Origin: an archaeon
Lineage (GTDB): Archaea; Nanobdellota; Nanobdellia; Pacearchaeales; GW2011-AR1
NCBI GenBank assembly: GCA_027343665.1
Contig: DAHWKL010000002.1
Location: 45,386-109,385 of the forward strand
DNA length: 64,000 bases
Direction of reading: 5' to 3'
In this document: positions 40,799 through 46,572 of the stretch, piece after piece
Layout of the letters: each line of letters begins with the position of its first letter
How positions within the stretch are numbered: the stretch's first letter is position 1
Translations under genes and position numbers: made by a program
Notes under the pieces: model-generated
What the model was told of the DNA's origin: nothing
The model's database searches: none
Seen by the model: the letters and a program-made list of their open reading frames with translations, nothing else

Positions 40799-41389
40799 CT
40801 ATATTTCAAAAATTTTTGGGCTCCTTGCAACATTCATTACCTGAGTATTTTTTATTTTTTCCGTAAGACCCCCACCCTCATGTATATGCCCGCATATGAG
40901 AAAGTCAGGAGAAAACTTTTCTATTGCTTTTGCAATCCCATATGAACCTGGAAAACCCATAAGCTCGATTGCACTCCCTTCAGGCGGACAGTGGGTTATC
41001 ATAATTTTCTTTTTCATCCGCCTTATACCTTCGTGGGCACTTTTTAGTTCTTCGAAAACTTTCCTCGAATTTTCTTCAAAACCCCAATCAACAGTCCCAG
41101 ATCCGAAAAATCCGACATCACCGATTTTCATGCCTTTTTTATGTATACTTTTAAGGTTCGGATACATTTCTTCCCAAAGTTTTATTGTCGCTTCAGTTTC
41201 ATGATTGCTTGGAACAATCAAAGCCGGTTTTTTTGTCAAAGGACCGACAAGACCTTCCTTCATCTTCTCAAACCATGTTTGGTCACCTGCAAGTATGACA
41301 AGATCAACCTTTTCTTTTTCTATCATCTTCTCGACTTTTTTCACAAGCCCGAGATCACCATGAATATCTGAGACTGCAAGAATTTTCAT
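40799..41389 (-). CDS. calcineurin-like metallophosphoesterase (YfcE/MJ0936-like)
   Basis: KILAVSDIHGD, ILAGDQ, PSNHE, ICGHIHEG. Confidence 0.8.
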   Translation of the reverse strand: MKILAVSDIHGDLGLVKKVEKMIEKEKVDLVILAGDQTWFEKMKEGLVGPLTKKPALIVPSNHETEATIKLWEEMYPNLKSIHKKGMKIGDVGFFGSGTVDWGFEENSRKVFEELKSAHEGIRRMKKKIMITHCPPEGSAIELMGFPGSYGIAKAIEKFSPDFLICGHIHEGGGLTEKIKNTQVMNVARSPKIFEI

Positions 41390-42225
41390 TTTATTATCCT
41401 CCCGAGTTCCGTGAGCCTTTTCTCAGCTCCGACAGAGGTATTGAAAAGTTTTATAAAAATTTTTGAGAGCCATTCAGTCCATTCCTTATCTTTTATTGTG
41501 TAAAATATGAAAATTTTCTTGTCAAGCTCTTTTATCTTTCCGGTGGGCTCACGTATCTCTTTCAGTCTAACAGAATTATTATCTACAATGAAAGCCCTCA
41601 TAGGATGTTCCCTGTGCCTTATTTCTATTAACTCCTTACCATATTTGTAGTTTAATGAAAGAACTTTTTTTATATTCTCAATCCCAGATAGATCAACCCT
41701 GCAAAGAGCTTTGAATTTGACGCCCTTTTTCACTAAGCCATCAAGAGTCTTGAATAAATCTATATCTCCCTTCTTCAGATTTATCCATGATAGATTTCCG
41801 GAGAAAAGTTTTATTTCTTTTTTAGCAGAATTCAGAATTTCTATAAGTTCCCTCAAATTTGTACCTTCTTCAGAGATTTCATCTTCCACGATAGCTTTTT
41901 TGTTTTTATCGGGAACATGCTGGAATATGTCAAAAGCAGAGAATTCGTCTTTCCTTTTCTGTCTCATTATCTCATTCTCAAGCTCCTCTTGGATCTTTGT
42001 TGAACTTGCCATCTCCGGATTCATCTTGTAAGCGACTTTCAAAGCCCCCCTTGTGCCGCCCCTGAAGGTTTTTGTTGTTATAGTCCCGTATTCCTCTTCT
42101 ATTTCTTTCAGGTATCTGTCAACGGTCCTCCAATTCTTTTGTATATGTTCTGAGATTTCATTTATACTTCTTGGTTCAACAGAAACAAATCTTTCTATCT
42201 CCTGAGTCATCTTATTATCAAGCAT
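41386..42225 (-). CDS. divergent TrmB-like regulator (wHTH + PLD-like C-terminal domain)
   Basis: N-terminal EPRSINEISEHIQKNWRTVDRYLKEIEEE. The C-terminal LNSAKKEIKLFSG...KKGVKFKALCRVD...MRAFIVDNNSV parallels the C-domains of the two TrmB paralogues. ATGA overlap with the phosphoesterase gene. Confidence 0.45.
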   Translation of the reverse strand: MLDNKMTQEIERFVSVEPRSINEISEHIQKNWRTVDRYLKEIEEEYGTITTKTFRGGTRGALKVAYKMNPEMASSTKIQEELENEIMRQKRKDEFSAFDIFQHVPDKNKKAIVEDEISEEGTNLRELIEILNSAKKEIKLFSGNLSWINLKKGDIDLFKTLDGLVKKGVKFKALCRVDLSGIENIKKVLSLNYKYGKELIEIRHREHPMRAFIVDNNSVRLKEIREPTGKIKELDKKIFIFYTIKDKEWTEWLSKIFIKLFNTSVGAEKRLTELGRIIK

Positions 42226-42328
42226 TAAAATGATTGCTATCCCACCTTTTTAAGTATTTTTATTTATTGTTATATAGTTGCATTTTTTGTTCAGAAATTG
42301 TCAAGAATTGCACAAGTCTTAATTTAGT

Positions 42329-43153
42329 ATGGAGACAAAGATAGATTATTCGAAAGTTTCTGAAGCGATTGATTTCTACAAAGGAAAAGGTTTCAAGCAC
42401 ATTGAAGTTCCCTGGATCGTCTCGTATGAAGCTGATAGCATAACCACCCCTAAAGACGTCAGAAGATTCAGATGCTCTCTTGATGAAAAATACACGGGAA
42501 ACCACATCGCCTCAGGAGAACAGGGCTTCCTTGAATTGATTCTCGAAGGCAGGTTGAAAGAAGGAAAATACTGCTGTGCCACACCTTGCTATAGGGATGA
42601 AAAAAATATTGATGACCTGCATAAAACATCTTTCTTCAAAGTAGAACTCATAGATTACCTTGGAAAGCAATCCGGATTCGCTTCTCAGGATAAGGAGGAT
42701 AAGATGATCGAGATAGCGAATGAATTCTTCTCAAAATACCTCAAAACAGATGCCATAAAGACTTCATCCGGAAAAGATATAATCTCAAAGACACAGGGTA
42801 TCGAACTCGGAAGTTATGGCCACAATTCTTACAAAGGATTTCATTGGATATATGGAACAGGGGTCGCCGAACCCAGATTAAGTTCCGTCTTGAGTCTTGC
42901 TCCAAAAGGTTACCATGAAAAAGATATCCCCCTCTCAGAATTTGAAAGTGCAGACAAGATTTACGAAGAGGTTCTGGAATTCAGGGACTCCTTGAATCAG
43001 GGAGTAAAGATAATGAGTCTCCTCGAACTCTCAGATATCATGGGAGCGATAGAAGGATATATAGAAAAAAATTTTCCGGAACTTAGTCTTGATGACTTAT
43101 TGAAAATGAAAGAAGCGACAAGAAAAACTTTCAAAAGTGGGATGAGAAAATGA
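42329..43153 (+). CDS. class IIc aminoacyl-tRNA-synthetase-like catalytic core fused to a MazG/HisE-like NTP pyrophosphohydrolase domain
   Basis: Motif 1 GKGFKHIEVPWIV, motif 2 ATPCYRDEKNIDDLHKTSFFKVEL, motif 3 WIYGTGVAEPRLSSVL. No anticodon/tRNA-binding domain. The C-terminal segment of about 80 aa, KIYEEVLEFRDSL...LLELSDIMGAIEGYIEK, follows the EExxE...ExxD pattern. Confidence 0.6.
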   Translation: METKIDYSKVSEAIDFYKGKGFKHIEVPWIVSYEADSITTPKDVRRFRCSLDEKYTGNHIASGEQGFLELILEGRLKEGKYCCATPCYRDEKNIDDLHKTSFFKVELIDYLGKQSGFASQDKEDKMIEIANEFFSKYLKTDAIKTSSGKDIISKTQGIELGSYGHNSYKGFHWIYGTGVAEPRLSSVLSLAPKGYHEKDIPLSEFESADKIYEEVLEFRDSLNQGVKIMSLLELSDIMGAIEGYIEKNFPELSLDDLLKMKEATRKTFKSGMRK

Positions 43154-43815
43154 AAAGATTGTATCTGGTGCCTGTGAGAGACGCATGCCCTGCGGACTGC
43201 ACTTTCTGTTATATGAAGGAAAGAGAGACAGACAAAGGCAAACCTCAATTCATAGATATATCAAAACTTGAGAAAACGATTTCAGGAATCAAGGACTTTG
43301 ATGAAGTCGAGATAACAGGAGGTGGAGACTCTTTGCTTCATAAGAGCATTAAGGGTATAATCGGCTTATTCCCGAATAAATACATTAAACTTTATACTGA
43401 AGGCTTCATGCTCAAGGATATTTCGGGAATAGACGAACTTAATCTATCAAGAGTCCATTGGAACTCAGAGACAAATAACAATTTTTACAGGAGCCGGTTG
43501 CAGAACAATTTGGATGAAGTCCTTGATTTTTACAGACCAAAAGTTTACAGGATAAGGATGCAAACAATTCTCCTCAAAGGAGCGATTGATTCGCCTGAGA
43601 AGATGAGAGAATTTGTCGGAAGGCATGAAGACAAATTCGACGTCTTCATGTTCAGGGAGTTGTTTCCCGGTTGCTCCCTTGAAAAAGATAAATTCGTGAG
43701 TTACTTTGATTTCTCACATCCAAAAGTCGTGTTCGATAGAACTCTTGACAACTATTCCCGCGACCTTTATTTCATAGGAACAGACTCAGAAGTGCACAAT
43801 GATTTCCAATATTGA
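43150..43815 (+). CDS. small radical-SAM enzyme (221 aa)
   Basis: CPADCTFC (Cx3Cx2C) near the N-terminus and a GGEP-like ITGGGDSLL. ATGA overlap with the upstream gene. Confidence 0.75.
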   Translation: MKRLYLVPVRDACPADCTFCYMKERETDKGKPQFIDISKLEKTISGIKDFDEVEITGGGDSLLHKSIKGIIGLFPNKYIKLYTEGFMLKDISGIDELNLSRVHWNSETNNNFYRSRLQNNLDEVLDFYRPKVYRIRMQTILLKGAIDSPEKMREFVGRHEDKFDVFMFRELFPGCSLEKDKFVSYFDFSHPKVVFDRTLDNYSRDLYFIGTDSEVHNDFQY

Positions 43816-43867: not shown

Positions 43868-44098
43868 ATGAAAAGCATTGATGAAGCAACACTATATAGG
43901 ATAAGTATTTCCGGGGCTGTGAAAATAGACCGGATCAGGAGCATATTTGAAACACTTTCAACCAAGAATTATTCAATACAAGATATCGGAAAGGTGACGC
44001 CATCCTCCATATACGTAGCAGGCAGGGAATACCGGTTTGATGAAATTGCAAAAATTCCGGATAAGGAGGTCACAAGTTATGAAAGCAAGCAATCTTGA
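43868..44098 (+). CDS. hypothetical protein (76 aa)
   Basis: ORF overlapping the next ORF by 20 nt. No motif recognised. Confidence 0.45.
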   Translation: MKSIDEATLYRISISGAVKIDRIRSIFETLSTKNYSIQDIGKVTPSSIYVAGREYRFDEIAKIPDKEVTSYESKQS

Positions 44099-44624
44099 GA
44101 AAGAACTTGCAGCAGACCTTAATGCGCTTGCGGAGAAGATAAGAGATTACTCAAGAAATCAGAAAGAACTATGGAGAAAAGTTCCTTACCTGGCCTTGCA
44201 GGCCGACGGACACGGAGGGTATTCTTCAACCTATCAACTCGCTTATATTCACGGATACTGGGAAGCAGGAGAATCTGTATATGTGGATCTTGAAAACGGG
44301 GAGCTTATCCAATATCCTTATGCACCATGGGAAAAACAGGTTGAAGCTTCGAATATAAAGATTGTCAGCTTAATCTCCCCGAATTTTGACAGGCTGAATG
44401 CGACAGCAATCATATCCGATTTAAGAATGACCGGAAAGTGTAAAGATTCTGATTGTGTTCCGATAGGATTCAAAACAGTCAGGAAATGGAGAGAGAGTCT
44501 CATGGAAGAATACGGGATAAAAAAAGATTATTCCAGAAGTGGGGACATTAATTATCTTGGATCGAGAGAGGGTCTAAATAGAGCTTGGGACAAAGCATTC
44601 AAAATTGCGGAGAATGAAAAATGA
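44079..44624 (+). CDS. hypothetical protein (181 aa)
   Basis: ORF 44037..44624. ATG 44079 is preceded by AGGAGGT (44064-44070) with an 8-nt spacer. Confidence 0.55.
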   Translation: MKASNLEKELAADLNALAEKIRDYSRNQKELWRKVPYLALQADGHGGYSSTYQLAYIHGYWEAGESVYVDLENGELIQYPYAPWEKQVEASNIKIVSLISPNFDRLNATAIISDLRMTGKCKDSDCVPIGFKTVRKWRESLMEEYGIKKDYSRSGDINYLGSREGLNRAWDKAFKIAENEK

Positions 44625-44901
44625 AGAACAAAAAAAAGCATTTATAACAATTATAGGTGATGATAGGGGTGGAGCGCTTGTAGAGTGCAGCAACTGCCAC
44701 CATGATCTGCACCAATACACAAAAGAGTATTCTGAAAAATATTCAACCCCACAGATGGTAGGATTATTGGACCGTATTAGATGCGGAAAAGAATTAACAG
44801 ACAAAGTCCAGAATATTCCGCCGATGCAATGCCCCAACTGTGAATCTTATCTTACATACGGCTCCATCACTTCCTACCTGTTTGGGGGAAGTGATTTCTG
44901 A
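44614..44901 (+). CDS. zinc-ribbon protein (95 aa)
   Basis: ORF 44605..44901 starts at TTG. ATG 44614 overlaps the previous stop by 11 nt. Cys pairs CSNC and CPNC. Confidence 0.5.
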   Translation: MKNEEQKKAFITIIGDDRGGALVECSNCHHDLHQYTKEYSEKYSTPQMVGLLDRIRCGKELTDKVQNIPPMQCPNCESYLTYGSITSYLFGGSDF

Positions 44902-45016: not shown

Positions 45017-45292
45017 ATGTCCAAGATGGAAGACAACTTTGACATCTTTTTCAGAAGAAAGCCGGCATTGATGCTCGTTTCTTTGAAAAAGAACACACGG
45101 ATGAGGTATGGTAGTGTTTTGGCTAAAGAAGTGGACTGCACTTACAGCCATGCGGTTAAGATACTGCAGACACTTGAACTTCTAAGGCTTGTTGAGTTTG
45201 ACAAGAAAGGTCGAATCAAACTTATAAAGCTGACACCGAAGGGAAAGCAGGTCGCAGACGCTATTGAGAATATACAGATTCTCATAAAGTAA
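45017..45292 (+). CDS. small winged-helix DNA-binding protein (91 aa)
   Basis: MRYGSVLAKEVDCTYSHAVKILQTLELLRLVEFDKKGRIKLIKLTPKG is an HTH plus beta-wing pattern. Confidence 0.6.
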   Translation: MSKMEDNFDIFFRRKPALMLVSLKKNTRMRYGSVLAKEVDCTYSHAVKILQTLELLRLVEFDKKGRIKLIKLTPKGKQVADAIENIQILIK

Positions 45293-45866: not shown

Positions 45867-45876
45867 ACAGACAAAA

Positions 45877-45951
45877 TGGCCCCGATGGGATTTGAACCCA
45901 CGACACCTGGATTAAGAGTCCAGTGCTCTGGCCAGACTGAGCTACGGAGCC
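45877..45951 (-). tRNA. tRNA-Lys (anticodon CUU), 75 nt, no encoded CCA, no intron
   Basis: Hand fold: GGCTCCG/TA/GCTC-AGTCTGGCCA-GAGC/A/CTGGA-CTCTTAA-TCCAG/GTGTC/GTGGG-TTCAAAT-CCCAT/CGGGGCC/A. Followed by TTTTGT. Confidence 0.9.
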
Positions 45952-45999
45952 ATATGCTGCATTGCCCGGAATGGACTGACGGTTTTTTCTTCCGTTTGA

Positions 46000-46086: not shown

Positions 46087-46572
46087 TTATACACCTAAAC
46101 TTTCCTCGCTCAGGAATTTTCCATAATCGGAAGATTTCTTCTTTGAAAAACTCCCGTTATTTTCCCTGAACTCATAATTCCCCTTTCTCGATCCGACGAT
46201 TTCAGTAGCATACTTTAAGAAAGCTTCATAATCGGGAAGACCTCTATATTCTATTTCCTGGCTAATCTTTTTCGCAAAAGCTATTCCGTATTTCATTCCA
46301 TTTGAGATTCCTCTGTCCTGGTAAACAATTCTCTTTTCAGCGAGTTTTCCCCATGCGATGCCCGCATCAATTCCGAGGCTCCTTTCCTCTTCCACCATAT
46401 CATTTAGCACACCCTCCTGCGTGTAAAACAAATGCGACGCGAAAGGAAACTCTCCCTTGAGCAAAGAATCATGAACACATGCCCTTGCATACAGAATATT
46501 CAGATTAGTATCCAAATAATTTTCTCCTCTAAAAGGGCTTTCAATAATCACCAACTTTCCGATATTTCCCAT
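46087..46572 (-). CDS. hypothetical protein, DUF4406/nucleoside-deoxyribosyltransferase-like (phage-associated family)
   Basis: LVIIESPFRGENYLDTNLNILYARACVHDSLLKGEFPFASHLFY...ISNGMKYGIAFAKK resembles the xSPYxG...N..YA...P.APHL...S.GM family pattern, from memory only. Confidence 0.4.
   Translation of the reverse strand: MGNIGKLVIIESPFRGENYLDTNLNILYARACVHDSLLKGEFPFASHLFYTQEGVLNDMVEEERSLGIDAGIAWGKLAEKRIVYQDRGISNGMKYGIAFAKKISQEIEYRGLPDYEAFLKYATEIVGSRKGNYEFRENNGSFSKKKSSDYGKFLSEESLGV

Follow-up and report, generated by a model that had tools for sequence, protein, structure and literature searches.

An archaeal fusion of a minimal class II synthetase-like core with a HisE/MazG-type pyrophosphohydrolase, its relatives in phages and its radical-SAM partner

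The fusion gene and the adjoining radical-SAM gene

Within a stretch of 64,000 nucleotides from an archaeon of the Pacearchaeales (contig DAHWKL010000002.1; the whole stretch is called the window here), two open reading frames (ORFs) on the forward strand share a 4-nt ATGA overlap, as had been described in a sequence-only reading of this DNA. ORF1 (42329..43153) encodes a protein of 274 amino acids (aa), in which an aminoacyl-tRNA synthetase (aaRS)-like core is followed by a HisE-like pyrophosphohydrolase; the assignment is based on the ORF call, on homologues and on an AlphaFold2 (AF2) model. ORF2 (43150..43815) encodes a radical S-adenosylmethionine (radical-SAM) protein of 221 aa, termed type A, which was recognised by a Pfam match above cut-off and by the alignment of its family. 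An exhaustive HMMER scan yielded 2058 cluster representatives related to ORF1 at E<=1e-3 and 1441 at E<=1e-10. The relatives of ORF2 number 29, with E-values from 1e-147 to 1e-48, and form a small family restricted to approximately 29 clusters, all DPANN-like (DPANN archaea or bacteria of the candidate phyla radiation, CPR). To judge from the sequences, both are genuine conserved genes and chance ORFs can be ruled out, because large sets of homologues exist and the motif residues are invariant across both families. With ORF1, the archaeon possesses in fused form a widespread, uncharacterised two-component enzyme, the parts of which are of known kinds and have already been catalogued, and mis-named, in phage databases.

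The N-terminal domain of ORF1 (residues 1-190, 42329..42898) corresponds to PHROG 4806, whose profile was matched with an E-value of 5.3e-42 over positions 2-185 of 190. It contains the segments GKGFKHIEVPWIV (residues 19-31), ASGEQGF (61-67) and ELGSYG (159-164) as well as motif 2, TPCYRDE...FFKVEL (residues 85-107, nt 42581-42649), and motif 3, YGTGVAEPRL (residues 175-184, nt 42851-42880). Arg89 of motif 2 and Arg183 of motif 3 were invariant in 44 N-domain sequences, as were the SGEQ loop and ELGSYG, phage, CPR and DPANN copies included. Searched against the PDB, a profile of this 44-member family gave SerRS chains at 5.8e-7 and AspRS at 0.02; in the alignment the invariant ASGEQSF lies opposite the SerRS loop 'ATSEQPI', and C[F/Y]RDE opposite 'CFRKE' of SerRS. 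The AF2 model of ORF1 reached a predicted local distance difference test score (pLDDT) of 94 and a predicted template modelling score of 0.88. With this model, Foldseek retrieved the catalytic domains of PylRS, SerRS and SepRS, all at approximately 3e-9, the scores of PylRS and SerRS being indistinguishable. The best named match in a library of viral structures was a giant-virus SerRS, outranked by uncharacterised phage proteins of 185-196 aa. A class II aaRS catalytic fold, which the sequence-only reading had also proposed, is supported together with a competent ATP site, since the SerRS profile match, the AF2/Foldseek matches and the invariant motif residues all point to it.

The class IIc form that had been attributed to this core did not find the same backing. 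At E<=10 the profile search of the PDB returned SerRS and AspRS chains only and no chain of class IIc, and the sub-threshold Pfam matches of the domain were spread over PF00152 (class IIb), PF01409 (IIc) and PF00587 (IIa). The sequence favours SerRS (class IIa), while the fold cannot split class IIa from IIc. An integrin match obtained in a single-sequence PDB search with ORF1 was judged to be spurious. The lack of a tRNA-binding domain was upheld: Pfam, NCBIfam and the AF2 model of ORF1 revealed neither an anticodon-binding domain nor a coiled-coil arm or an equivalent, and no anticodon-binding, coiled-coil or other tRNA-binding domain occurs in any of the approximately 2000 family members. 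The core itself measures 185-190 aa, and stand-alone mini-core proteins comprise 170-200 aa.

With SerRS and, by fold, the class IIc enzymes PylRS and SepRS, the mini-core shares the antiparallel-sheet core, motif 2 (C[F/Y]RxE), motif 3 (GTGxAxPR) and SGEQ, which resembles the TSEQ element. It differs from them by its size of approximately 185 aa without a coiled-coil arm or tRNA-binding domain, by a short motif 2 loop and by its HisE-like partner. Truncated class II cores reused outside translation are likewise known among the aaRS paralogues (amino acid:[carrier protein] ligases, AsnA/AS-AR, HisZ, EpmA), which have been reviewed (PMC9437257). Those paralogues, however, are not paired with a nucleoside triphosphate (NTP) pyrophosphatase, the PDB profile search of the mini-core retrieved none of them, and the mini-core/HisE-like family is not listed in that review.

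Two further observations concern the core. Canonical SerRS genes lie a few kb from the gene cluster in four DPANN contigs (L004:11720-12843, L053:3943-4656, L058:5485-5907 and L060:6718-7464) and were joined to the mini-core by BLAST clustering; this proximity may be mere synteny or a clue to the origin of the mini-core. Moreover, gp133 of the Caulobacter phage CcrColossus (L010:5251-6105) is a mini-aaRS with an N-terminal helix-hairpin-helix domain resembling the C-terminal domain of the RNA polymerase alpha subunit (alpha-CTD; 27.3 bits vs a Pfam cut-off of 23.8).

The C-terminal domain (residues 192-274, 42902..43150) matched phrog_6408 with E-values of 2e-29 and 2e-28, the latter over positions 2-83 of 83. 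Its motifs are GYH (residues 194-196), EEVLEFRD (213-220, pattern EExxExxD) and ELSD (233-236, pattern ExxD), and in 74 C-domain sequences Y195, K210, E213, E214, E217, D220, E233, D236, T264, F268 and R273 were invariant. Among 38 members, the PRA-PH (HisE) Pfam model was matched by 29 and the MazG model by six at E<=1, all below threshold (best 1.6e-4); the domain of the window itself matches neither model. The family profile retrieved the HisE structures 2a7w (0.022) and 1yvw (0.05), the top informative sequence matches, plus a Sulfolobus MazG, and the alignment with HisE also covers the lead-in before the first helix ('[S/G]Y..(5-6)..KG...K..EE..E'). Modelled in isolation, the domain forms three helices (pLDDT 92.6), whose top six fold matches in the PDB were HisE, HisIE and MazG proteins with a root-mean-square deviation of 1.4 Å over 55 residues and a probability of 0.97. 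Hence, the assignment to the HisE/MazG superfamily made in the sequence-only reading stands, HisE being closer than MazG. The helical domain with its EExxE...ExxD metal ligands is common to all of them; the C-domain is set apart from HisE and MazG by having three helices in 83-85 aa, by scores below the Pfam thresholds, by its tie to an aaRS-like partner and by the lack of his genes nearby, as neither HisG nor HisI nor others were found in the more than 40 neighbourhoods examined. For ORF1 as a whole, we consider it highly probable that a minimal, tRNA-domain-less SerRS-like class II core has been joined to a Mg2+-dependent NTP pyrophosphohydrolase of the HisE/MazG type, the catalytic residues being kept.

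ORF2 scored 32.4 bits against the radical-SAM model PF04055 (gathering cut-off 29.5), which bears out its earlier classification, and the motifs quoted for both proteins were all found in their places. CPADCTFC (CX3CX2C) comprises residues 13-20 (nt 43186-43209) and ITGGGDSLL, with the GGG(D/E) motif, residues 55-63 (nt 43312-43338). C13, C17, C20 and GGG(E/D) are invariant in the family alignment, in which no motif for an auxiliary cysteine cluster was present. Among named families, those that come closest are MoaA, the tungsten-cofactor maturase, viperin, NrdG2, TYW1 and QueE, all of them far under the cut-offs: the ORF2 protein of the window scored 25 bits with MoaA (cut-offs 231-325), 14 with viperin (180), 15 with NrdG2 (131) and 10.7 with EpmB (369), and a score of 27.5 bits for it stands against cut-offs of 180-380. 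PylB was matched over the N-terminal 67 residues only (E = 0.0037). The best values within the family were 1.3e-17 for MoaA and 2.8e-13 for viperin, and NrdG2 was matched weakly by all 23 of 23 members (best 4.6e-11). PADLOC gave only weak pVip matches. By its sequence, ORF2 is a radical-SAM enzyme outside every named family (MoaA, viperin, NrdG, QueE, EpmB, PylB). It has the N-terminal CX3CX2C and GGE(P) motifs in common with MoaA and viperin, which act on nucleoside triphosphates, but possesses neither a second cluster nor the C-terminal extension of viperin, and its scores are far below the cut-offs. According to the names of PADLOC models, viperins often lie beside nucleotide kinases.

The pair in phages, CPR bacteria and DPANN archaea

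A tblastn search with the ORF1 protein disclosed matches in 278 phage genomes, in 271 of which both halves were found at one place. In phages the halves are nearly always encoded by two neighbouring genes, of which the HisE-like one comes first and which often overlap. The carriers include the enterobacterial Stephanstirmvirinae and Vequintavirinae, T4-like Acinetobacter phages, phiCbK-like Caulobacter phages, Microcystis phages and uncultured phages of approximately 600 kb. The names given by depositors vary between seryl- and histidyl-tRNA synthetase for the one protein and between MazG-like and PRA-PH protein for the other; PHROGs labels phrog_4806 'histidyl tRNA synthetase' and phrog_6408 as of unknown function. 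The sequence-only reading did not recognise the fusion as a described family; its novelty in this sense is not supported, the halves being annotated as a pair in these 278 genomes. Among species-representative genomes, the family occurs in DPANN archaea and in CPR bacteria (about nine Saccharibacteria, WWE3, Spechtbacterales). In Saccharibacteria the pair is chromosomal and split into two adjacent genes, and such adjacent genes also occur in further CPR bacteria. We collected 66 fusions with the aaRS part first and four with the HisE part first; taking both orders together, fused forms are found in DPANN archaea, CPR bacteria and Microcystis phages, of which phage MaMV-DL02 is an example. Steady adjacency and independent fusions in both orientations are classic evidence that two proteins act together.

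The radical-SAM gene shows a much narrower distribution. The fusion adjoins a type-A radical-SAM gene in all 15 contigs that carry this subfamily, i.e. the window, L018, L013, L011, L012, L024, L021 and, from a metagenome scan, L040-L046 and L055; some of these genomes are related. The identity of their fusions to that of the window goes down to 40%, and the 4-nt overlap is usually kept. On L045 the contig end cuts the fusion so that the C-domain alone is visible. L021, binned as WWE3 (CPR) and endowed with an NrdR gene, exhibits the reversed order with the radical-SAM gene upstream of the fusion. No radical-SAM gene was found at the fused loci L004, L019, L020, L022 and L023, in any Saccharibacteria pair or in any phage pair. 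Consequently, the question whether the radical-SAM gene is always adjacent has a different answer from each side: every type-A gene has a fusion next to it, whereas most fusions and pairs are devoid of a radical-SAM gene. The adjacency recurs in other genomes, once reversed and once in a CPR bacterium, but the idea that the two ORFs constitute the core system did not hold. Because most of the fusion family lacks the radical-SAM gene, while type A is always found beside a fusion, this gene was added in one lineage to a two-part module that is older.

A literature search on phages, aaRS-like proteins, MazG, PRA-PH, rV5, CPR/DPANN and radical SAM with dCTP deaminase revealed no paper describing or testing the pair. 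The pair amounts to an obligately HisE-coupled, near-minimal class II core, joined in DPANN by a dedicated radical-SAM partner.

Gene neighbourhoods

In the window, the fusion is preceded by a divergent gene, up279 (41386..42225, reverse strand), for a putative regulator of 279 aa, in which a winged helix at the N-terminus is followed by a conserved C-terminal domain without a recognised fold. The winged helix-turn-helix (wHTH) gave a weak match of the ArsR/PH1932 type (0.018). up279 is conserved beside the fusion or beside the sister cluster described below in 18 loci. The divergent intergenic region of 103 bp (42226..42328) is presumed, from its position, to hold the promoters; no repeats or operators were found in it, and a scan for sigma-70 promoters and terminators, being of the bacterial type, was uninformative for an archaeon. 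A metallophosphoesterase gene (196 aa; 40799..41389, reverse strand; PF00149, 4.6e-13) overlaps the end of up279 by 4 nt, so both are co-translated on the opposite strand. It is a recurrent, movable member of the cluster, present near it in seven loci at differing positions, sometimes at the far end. On the other side, a 91-aa winged-helix protein (45017..45292, forward strand; HTH_27, 4.5e-5) recurs in five cluster loci. Its sequence is 98% identical to the L018 orthologue and 82% to that of L019, which is unusually strong for a small regulator, the flanking genes showing 56-86%. An AAA_28 (NadR-type) kinase gene lies beside the fusion in several DPANN loci, and a CYTH protein is encoded in one.

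At least ten other DPANN contigs (L053, L058-L061, L073, L077, L080, L084 and L089; e.g. L080:1195-5823) contain a sister cluster, which is likewise headed by up279 and does not include the fusion. It comprises genes for an AAA_28 kinase, a YorR-like protein, a radical-SAM paralogue of approximately 240 aa (type B), a dCTP deaminase and a metallophosphoesterase, with 4-nt overlaps; the type-B gene is translationally coupled to the YorR-like and dCTP deaminase genes. Type B is 26-36% identical to type A and has a different C-terminal half with the motif RSCxCE..NP.LHA.G. The YorR-like protein resembles P-loop deoxynucleoside kinases (PDB 2axp, 2e-6), and the dCTP deaminase matches 4xjc (4.8e-17) and the bifunctional MJ0430 (1.4e-15). 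A nucleoside-deoxyribosyltransferase-like ORF was recognised by eye in two of these contigs through its 'FYLAGP' motif. To our knowledge, no function has been described for a radical-SAM enzyme set between a kinase and Dcd.

In Saccharibacteria (L027-L033, e.g. L029:4210-6992), the pair is flanked on one side by the gene for a divergent wHTH(DUF7347)-Nudix protein; on the other side a protein of 392 aa is encoded, whose C-terminal half is uridine-cytidine-kinase-like (UCK2, 3e-9) and whose N-terminal 210 aa gave no assignment. The wHTH-Nudix arrangement is reminiscent of NrtR-type regulation; the surroundings (MurC-like, TrmB, HhH-GPD) are ordinary chromosomal genes. Three CPR contigs (L021:4140-4320, L030:4900-5000, L035:4830-4900) have an NrdR gene next to the pair in divergent orientation. 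Upstream of the CPR copies only loose AT-rich palindromes were seen (e.g. CACTATATAG on L035), and no NrdR box with at least 13 of 16 matches to the consensus was found in the intergenic regions; the sole match of this quality in the three contigs lies elsewhere, at L021:6499. In the E. coli phage KMB37 the pair (WQN06905 and WQN06904) is located two genes from NrdD/NrdG, with a GatB/YqeY-like gene next door. Other phages have it in the nrdC/glutaredoxin region, near nucleoside deoxyribosyltransferase and NTP-transferase genes or near NadE/NMNAT-like genes. Salvage and interconversion of (deoxy)nucleotides recur as a theme; since the phage neighbours vary widely, this context is a tendency and not a rule. 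Scans of the neighbours in CPR and other loci were mostly uninformative. No carrier-protein domain was present among the neighbours with precomputed Pfam hits or scanned directly, a set that does not take in every small ORF, and no HisG or EF-P context was seen in the neighbourhoods examined.

The wider setting of the locus is unremarkable. The G+C content of the window is 36.7%, without an anomaly around ORF1 and ORF2 over 36-50 kb; the genes are typical of DPANN archaea (DTD2-type tRNA deacylase, TFS, IleRS, EamA transporter, ATP-grasp_5 protein), and the nearest genome match is a metagenome-assembled genome labelled 'Nanoarchaeota archaeon'. A provirus or island was rejected as the main explanation on account of the GC content, the flanks of ordinary archaeal housekeeping genes and the fact that no integrase was seen. 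Small ORFs follow the radical-SAM gene at 43868-44901 (forward strand); one encodes a zinc-ribbon protein, and the ORF at 44037-44624 matches the phage family phrog_25871 (2e-13). They are weakly conserved even in L018, a relative with 74% identity, and downstream ORFs of 76 and 195 aa showed no homology to like-sized ORFs in L019 and L013. A tRNA-Lys(CTT) gene (45876-45952, reverse strand) is located approximately 2 kb downstream of ORF1 and ORF2, approximately 1 kb from the end of the small ORFs (44901) and 2 kb from their start (43868). The small ORFs and the tRNA gene may be the remnant of a mobile element, of which no integrase was seen. Directly past the tRNA gene, a DUF7768 protein (5e-27) is encoded at 46087-46572 (reverse strand); this gene is missing from the syntenic region of L018, where a HAD hydrolase is found in its place.

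Possible function and rival explanations

Both halves of the fusion look catalytically intact, and the chemistry of each concerns the alpha-beta bond of a nucleoside triphosphate. The two activities would share one small nucleotide substrate and not a tRNA. The HisE-like part would cleave a (d)NTP, possibly base-modified or a pyrimidine, at the alpha-beta bond to yield a nucleoside monophosphate (NMP) and pyrophosphate, and the ligase part would convert an amino acid or another carboxylate with ATP into an acyl-adenylate, the acyl group then being moved to a non-tRNA acceptor, most simply the nucleotide made by the HisE-like part. In the DPANN/CPR sub-lineage, the coupled, co-inherited 221-aa radical-SAM protein with its single-cluster, MoaA/viperin-like core would presumably carry out a radical step on the nucleotide or aminoacyl product. 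Fusion, radical-SAM gene and up279 would then belong to a cluster for (deoxy)nucleotide metabolism. As the fusion with radical-SAM type A alternates in one cluster with kinase, radical-SAM type B and dCTP deaminase, deoxypyrimidine nucleotides are the likeliest field of action. A comparable logic is known from the PurZ-MazZ(-DatZ) genes of Z-genome phages, which lie side by side and in which a MazG-type pyrophosphatase makes the NMP for the ATP-dependent joining of an amino acid and a nucleotide. The likeness is one of logic only, for PurZ is an adenylosuccinate-synthetase homologue with a fold unrelated to aaRSs and no sequence relationship exists; besides, nothing indicates modified DNA in the hosts of the pair.

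We put forward a tRNA-independent, nucleotide-directed ligase/pyrophosphatase module as a tentative overall reading, which in our estimation would come close to evenly balanced chances and fall slightly short of them. The specific mechanism, a nucleotide-directed ligase acting together with a pyrophosphatase, may be correct but is doubtful. A more far-reaching version, in which the mini-core would aminoacylate a free nucleotide or one within a nucleic acid that is supplied or proof-read by the HisE-like partner, the radical-SAM enzyme of DPANN would convert the product further, and the sister cluster would represent a new radical-SAM step in deoxypyrimidine metabolism, is unlikely.

Several points weigh against the nucleotide-directed module. 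The amino acid and the acceptor cannot be read from the sequence. With ORF1, nothing above the curated thresholds was obtained from Pfam, NCBIfam and PADLOC (best Pfam match tRNA-synt_2, E = 0.001), and the Foldseek E-values of the C-domain alone (85 aa) were 0.6-1.3 and thus insignificant, as is expected of a small helical domain. Elsewhere in phages the neighbours are glycosyltransferases, lysis genes, a helicase and unannotated genes. The GatB/YqeY-like neighbour in one E. coli phage is some evidence for a nucleic-acid substrate instead, and the alpha-CTD-like domain of CcrColossus gp133 may point to a nucleic acid as substrate or tether in this phage lineage. Finally, the type-B paralogue shows that radical-SAM enzymes of this clade can work without the fusion, so that the radical-SAM enzyme could have its own role, e.g. 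as an activase.

The observations on nucleic acids suggest a possible role in translation, in which the mini-core would be a trans-acting or auxiliary SerRS-like aaRS for a tRNA, a tRNA-like acceptor stem or damaged 3' ends, and the HisE-like helper would remove pyrophosphorylated ends or provide a binding surface. SerRS catalytic domains are indeed the nearest sequence relatives, including the TSEQ-like SGEQ, BLAST ties the family to the canonical SerRS genes nearby in the four DPANN contigs, and the GatB/YqeY-like gene after the pair in KMB37 as well as the nucleic-acid-binding domain fused in gp133 would fit. Furthermore, the phages carrying the pair tend, to judge from the organism names, to be large and rich in tRNA genes. 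Nevertheless, this role is improbable: none of the approximately 2000 members has a tRNA-binding domain, canonical SerRS is present in the same genomes, the strictly conserved HisE-type motif has no role in tRNA charging, and the YqeY and alpha-CTD associations were each seen in one lineage only.

Slightly less probable still is that the radical-SAM protein is a divergent NrdG-like activase of a glycyl-radical enzyme such as the anaerobic ribonucleotide reductase, sharing with the fusion only a regulon for dNTP supply and not a pathway. The weak NrdG2 matches of all 23 family members, the activase-like size of the protein, the location of the pair at a distance of two genes from NrdD/NrdG in KMB37, its NrdR neighbours in three CPR loci, and the grouping of the type-B paralogue with dCTP deaminase and kinase are consistent with such an activase. 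However, the models of MoaA, the tungsten-cofactor maturase and viperin outscore NrdG2, NrdD was not seen in the loci retrieved, and type A, whose C-terminal half is distinct, shows both strict co-occurrence and translational coupling with the fusion.

The recurrent neighbours suggest a further possibility, to which we assign a small chance. All of them are phosphoanhydride hydrolases or kinases (metallophosphoesterase, CYTH, Nudix, AAA_28, UCK-like), and the synthesis of Ap4A by class II aaRSs is established. The core could thus make an alarmone of the Ap4N type from aminoacyl-AMP and NTP, to be degraded by the HisE-like part and by the metallophosphoesterase, Nudix and CYTH proteins. Against this, no sensor or effector is evident, the pair of phages is self-contained and the hydrolase neighbours are missing there, and the radical-SAM enzyme would be left without a role.

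A modification system like EpmA/EpmB or PylS/PylB, the precedents named in the sequence-only reading, would have the radical-SAM enzyme remodel an amino acid and the ligase attach it to a protein or another macromolecule. The translational coupling and co-inheritance of an aaRS paralogue and a radical-SAM gene are in accordance with it, but we regard it as very improbable, and the analogies find no support: apart from the low EpmB score and the short PylB match, 221 aa are too small for an aminomutase or a PylB-type barrel, the ligase is not specific in the manner of LysRS or PylRS, most of the family has no radical-SAM gene, the HisE-like half would be unexplained, and the context is nucleotide metabolism. 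The most improbable alternative is an amidation reaction like that of AsnA or the archaeal AsnRS-like AS-AR, in which the core would adenylate a side-chain carboxylate for attack by ammonia; the HisE-like and radical-SAM genes would then be its neighbours through metabolic clustering alone. Truncated class II cores with such a function are known (PMC9437257, Table 1 and text) and sub-threshold matches to the Asp/Lys/Asn-type PF00152 exist, but the fact that the core is obligately paired with a nucleotide pyrophosphatase and fused to it in both orders, the wide occurrence in lytic phages and the core of 185 aa, far smaller than AsnA (330 aa), speak against it.

The mini-core of approximately 185 residues is among the smallest naturally conserved catalytic cores of class II aaRSs and therefore bears on questions of minimal synthetases ("urzymes"). 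Thousands of phage, CPR and DPANN genomes encode it in firm association with a nucleotide pyrophosphatase, among them those of well-studied phages of E. coli, Acinetobacter and Caulobacter, and the homologues in E. coli phages make the question of its function directly testable. A common trait of the carriers is their dependence on host nucleotide pools. Should the nucleotide-directed module prove to be real, a shared, unrecognised step of nucleotide processing would alter models of auxiliary metabolism in phages and of salvage in episymbionts, hundreds of misleading annotations as seryl/histidyl-tRNA synthetase would be corrected, and a new reaction could be added to the chemistry of radical-SAM enzymes and aaRS paralogues. 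If an aminoacyl-nucleotide were in fact the product, large phages as well as CPR and DPANN episymbionts would be making use of a new class of metabolite or modification.

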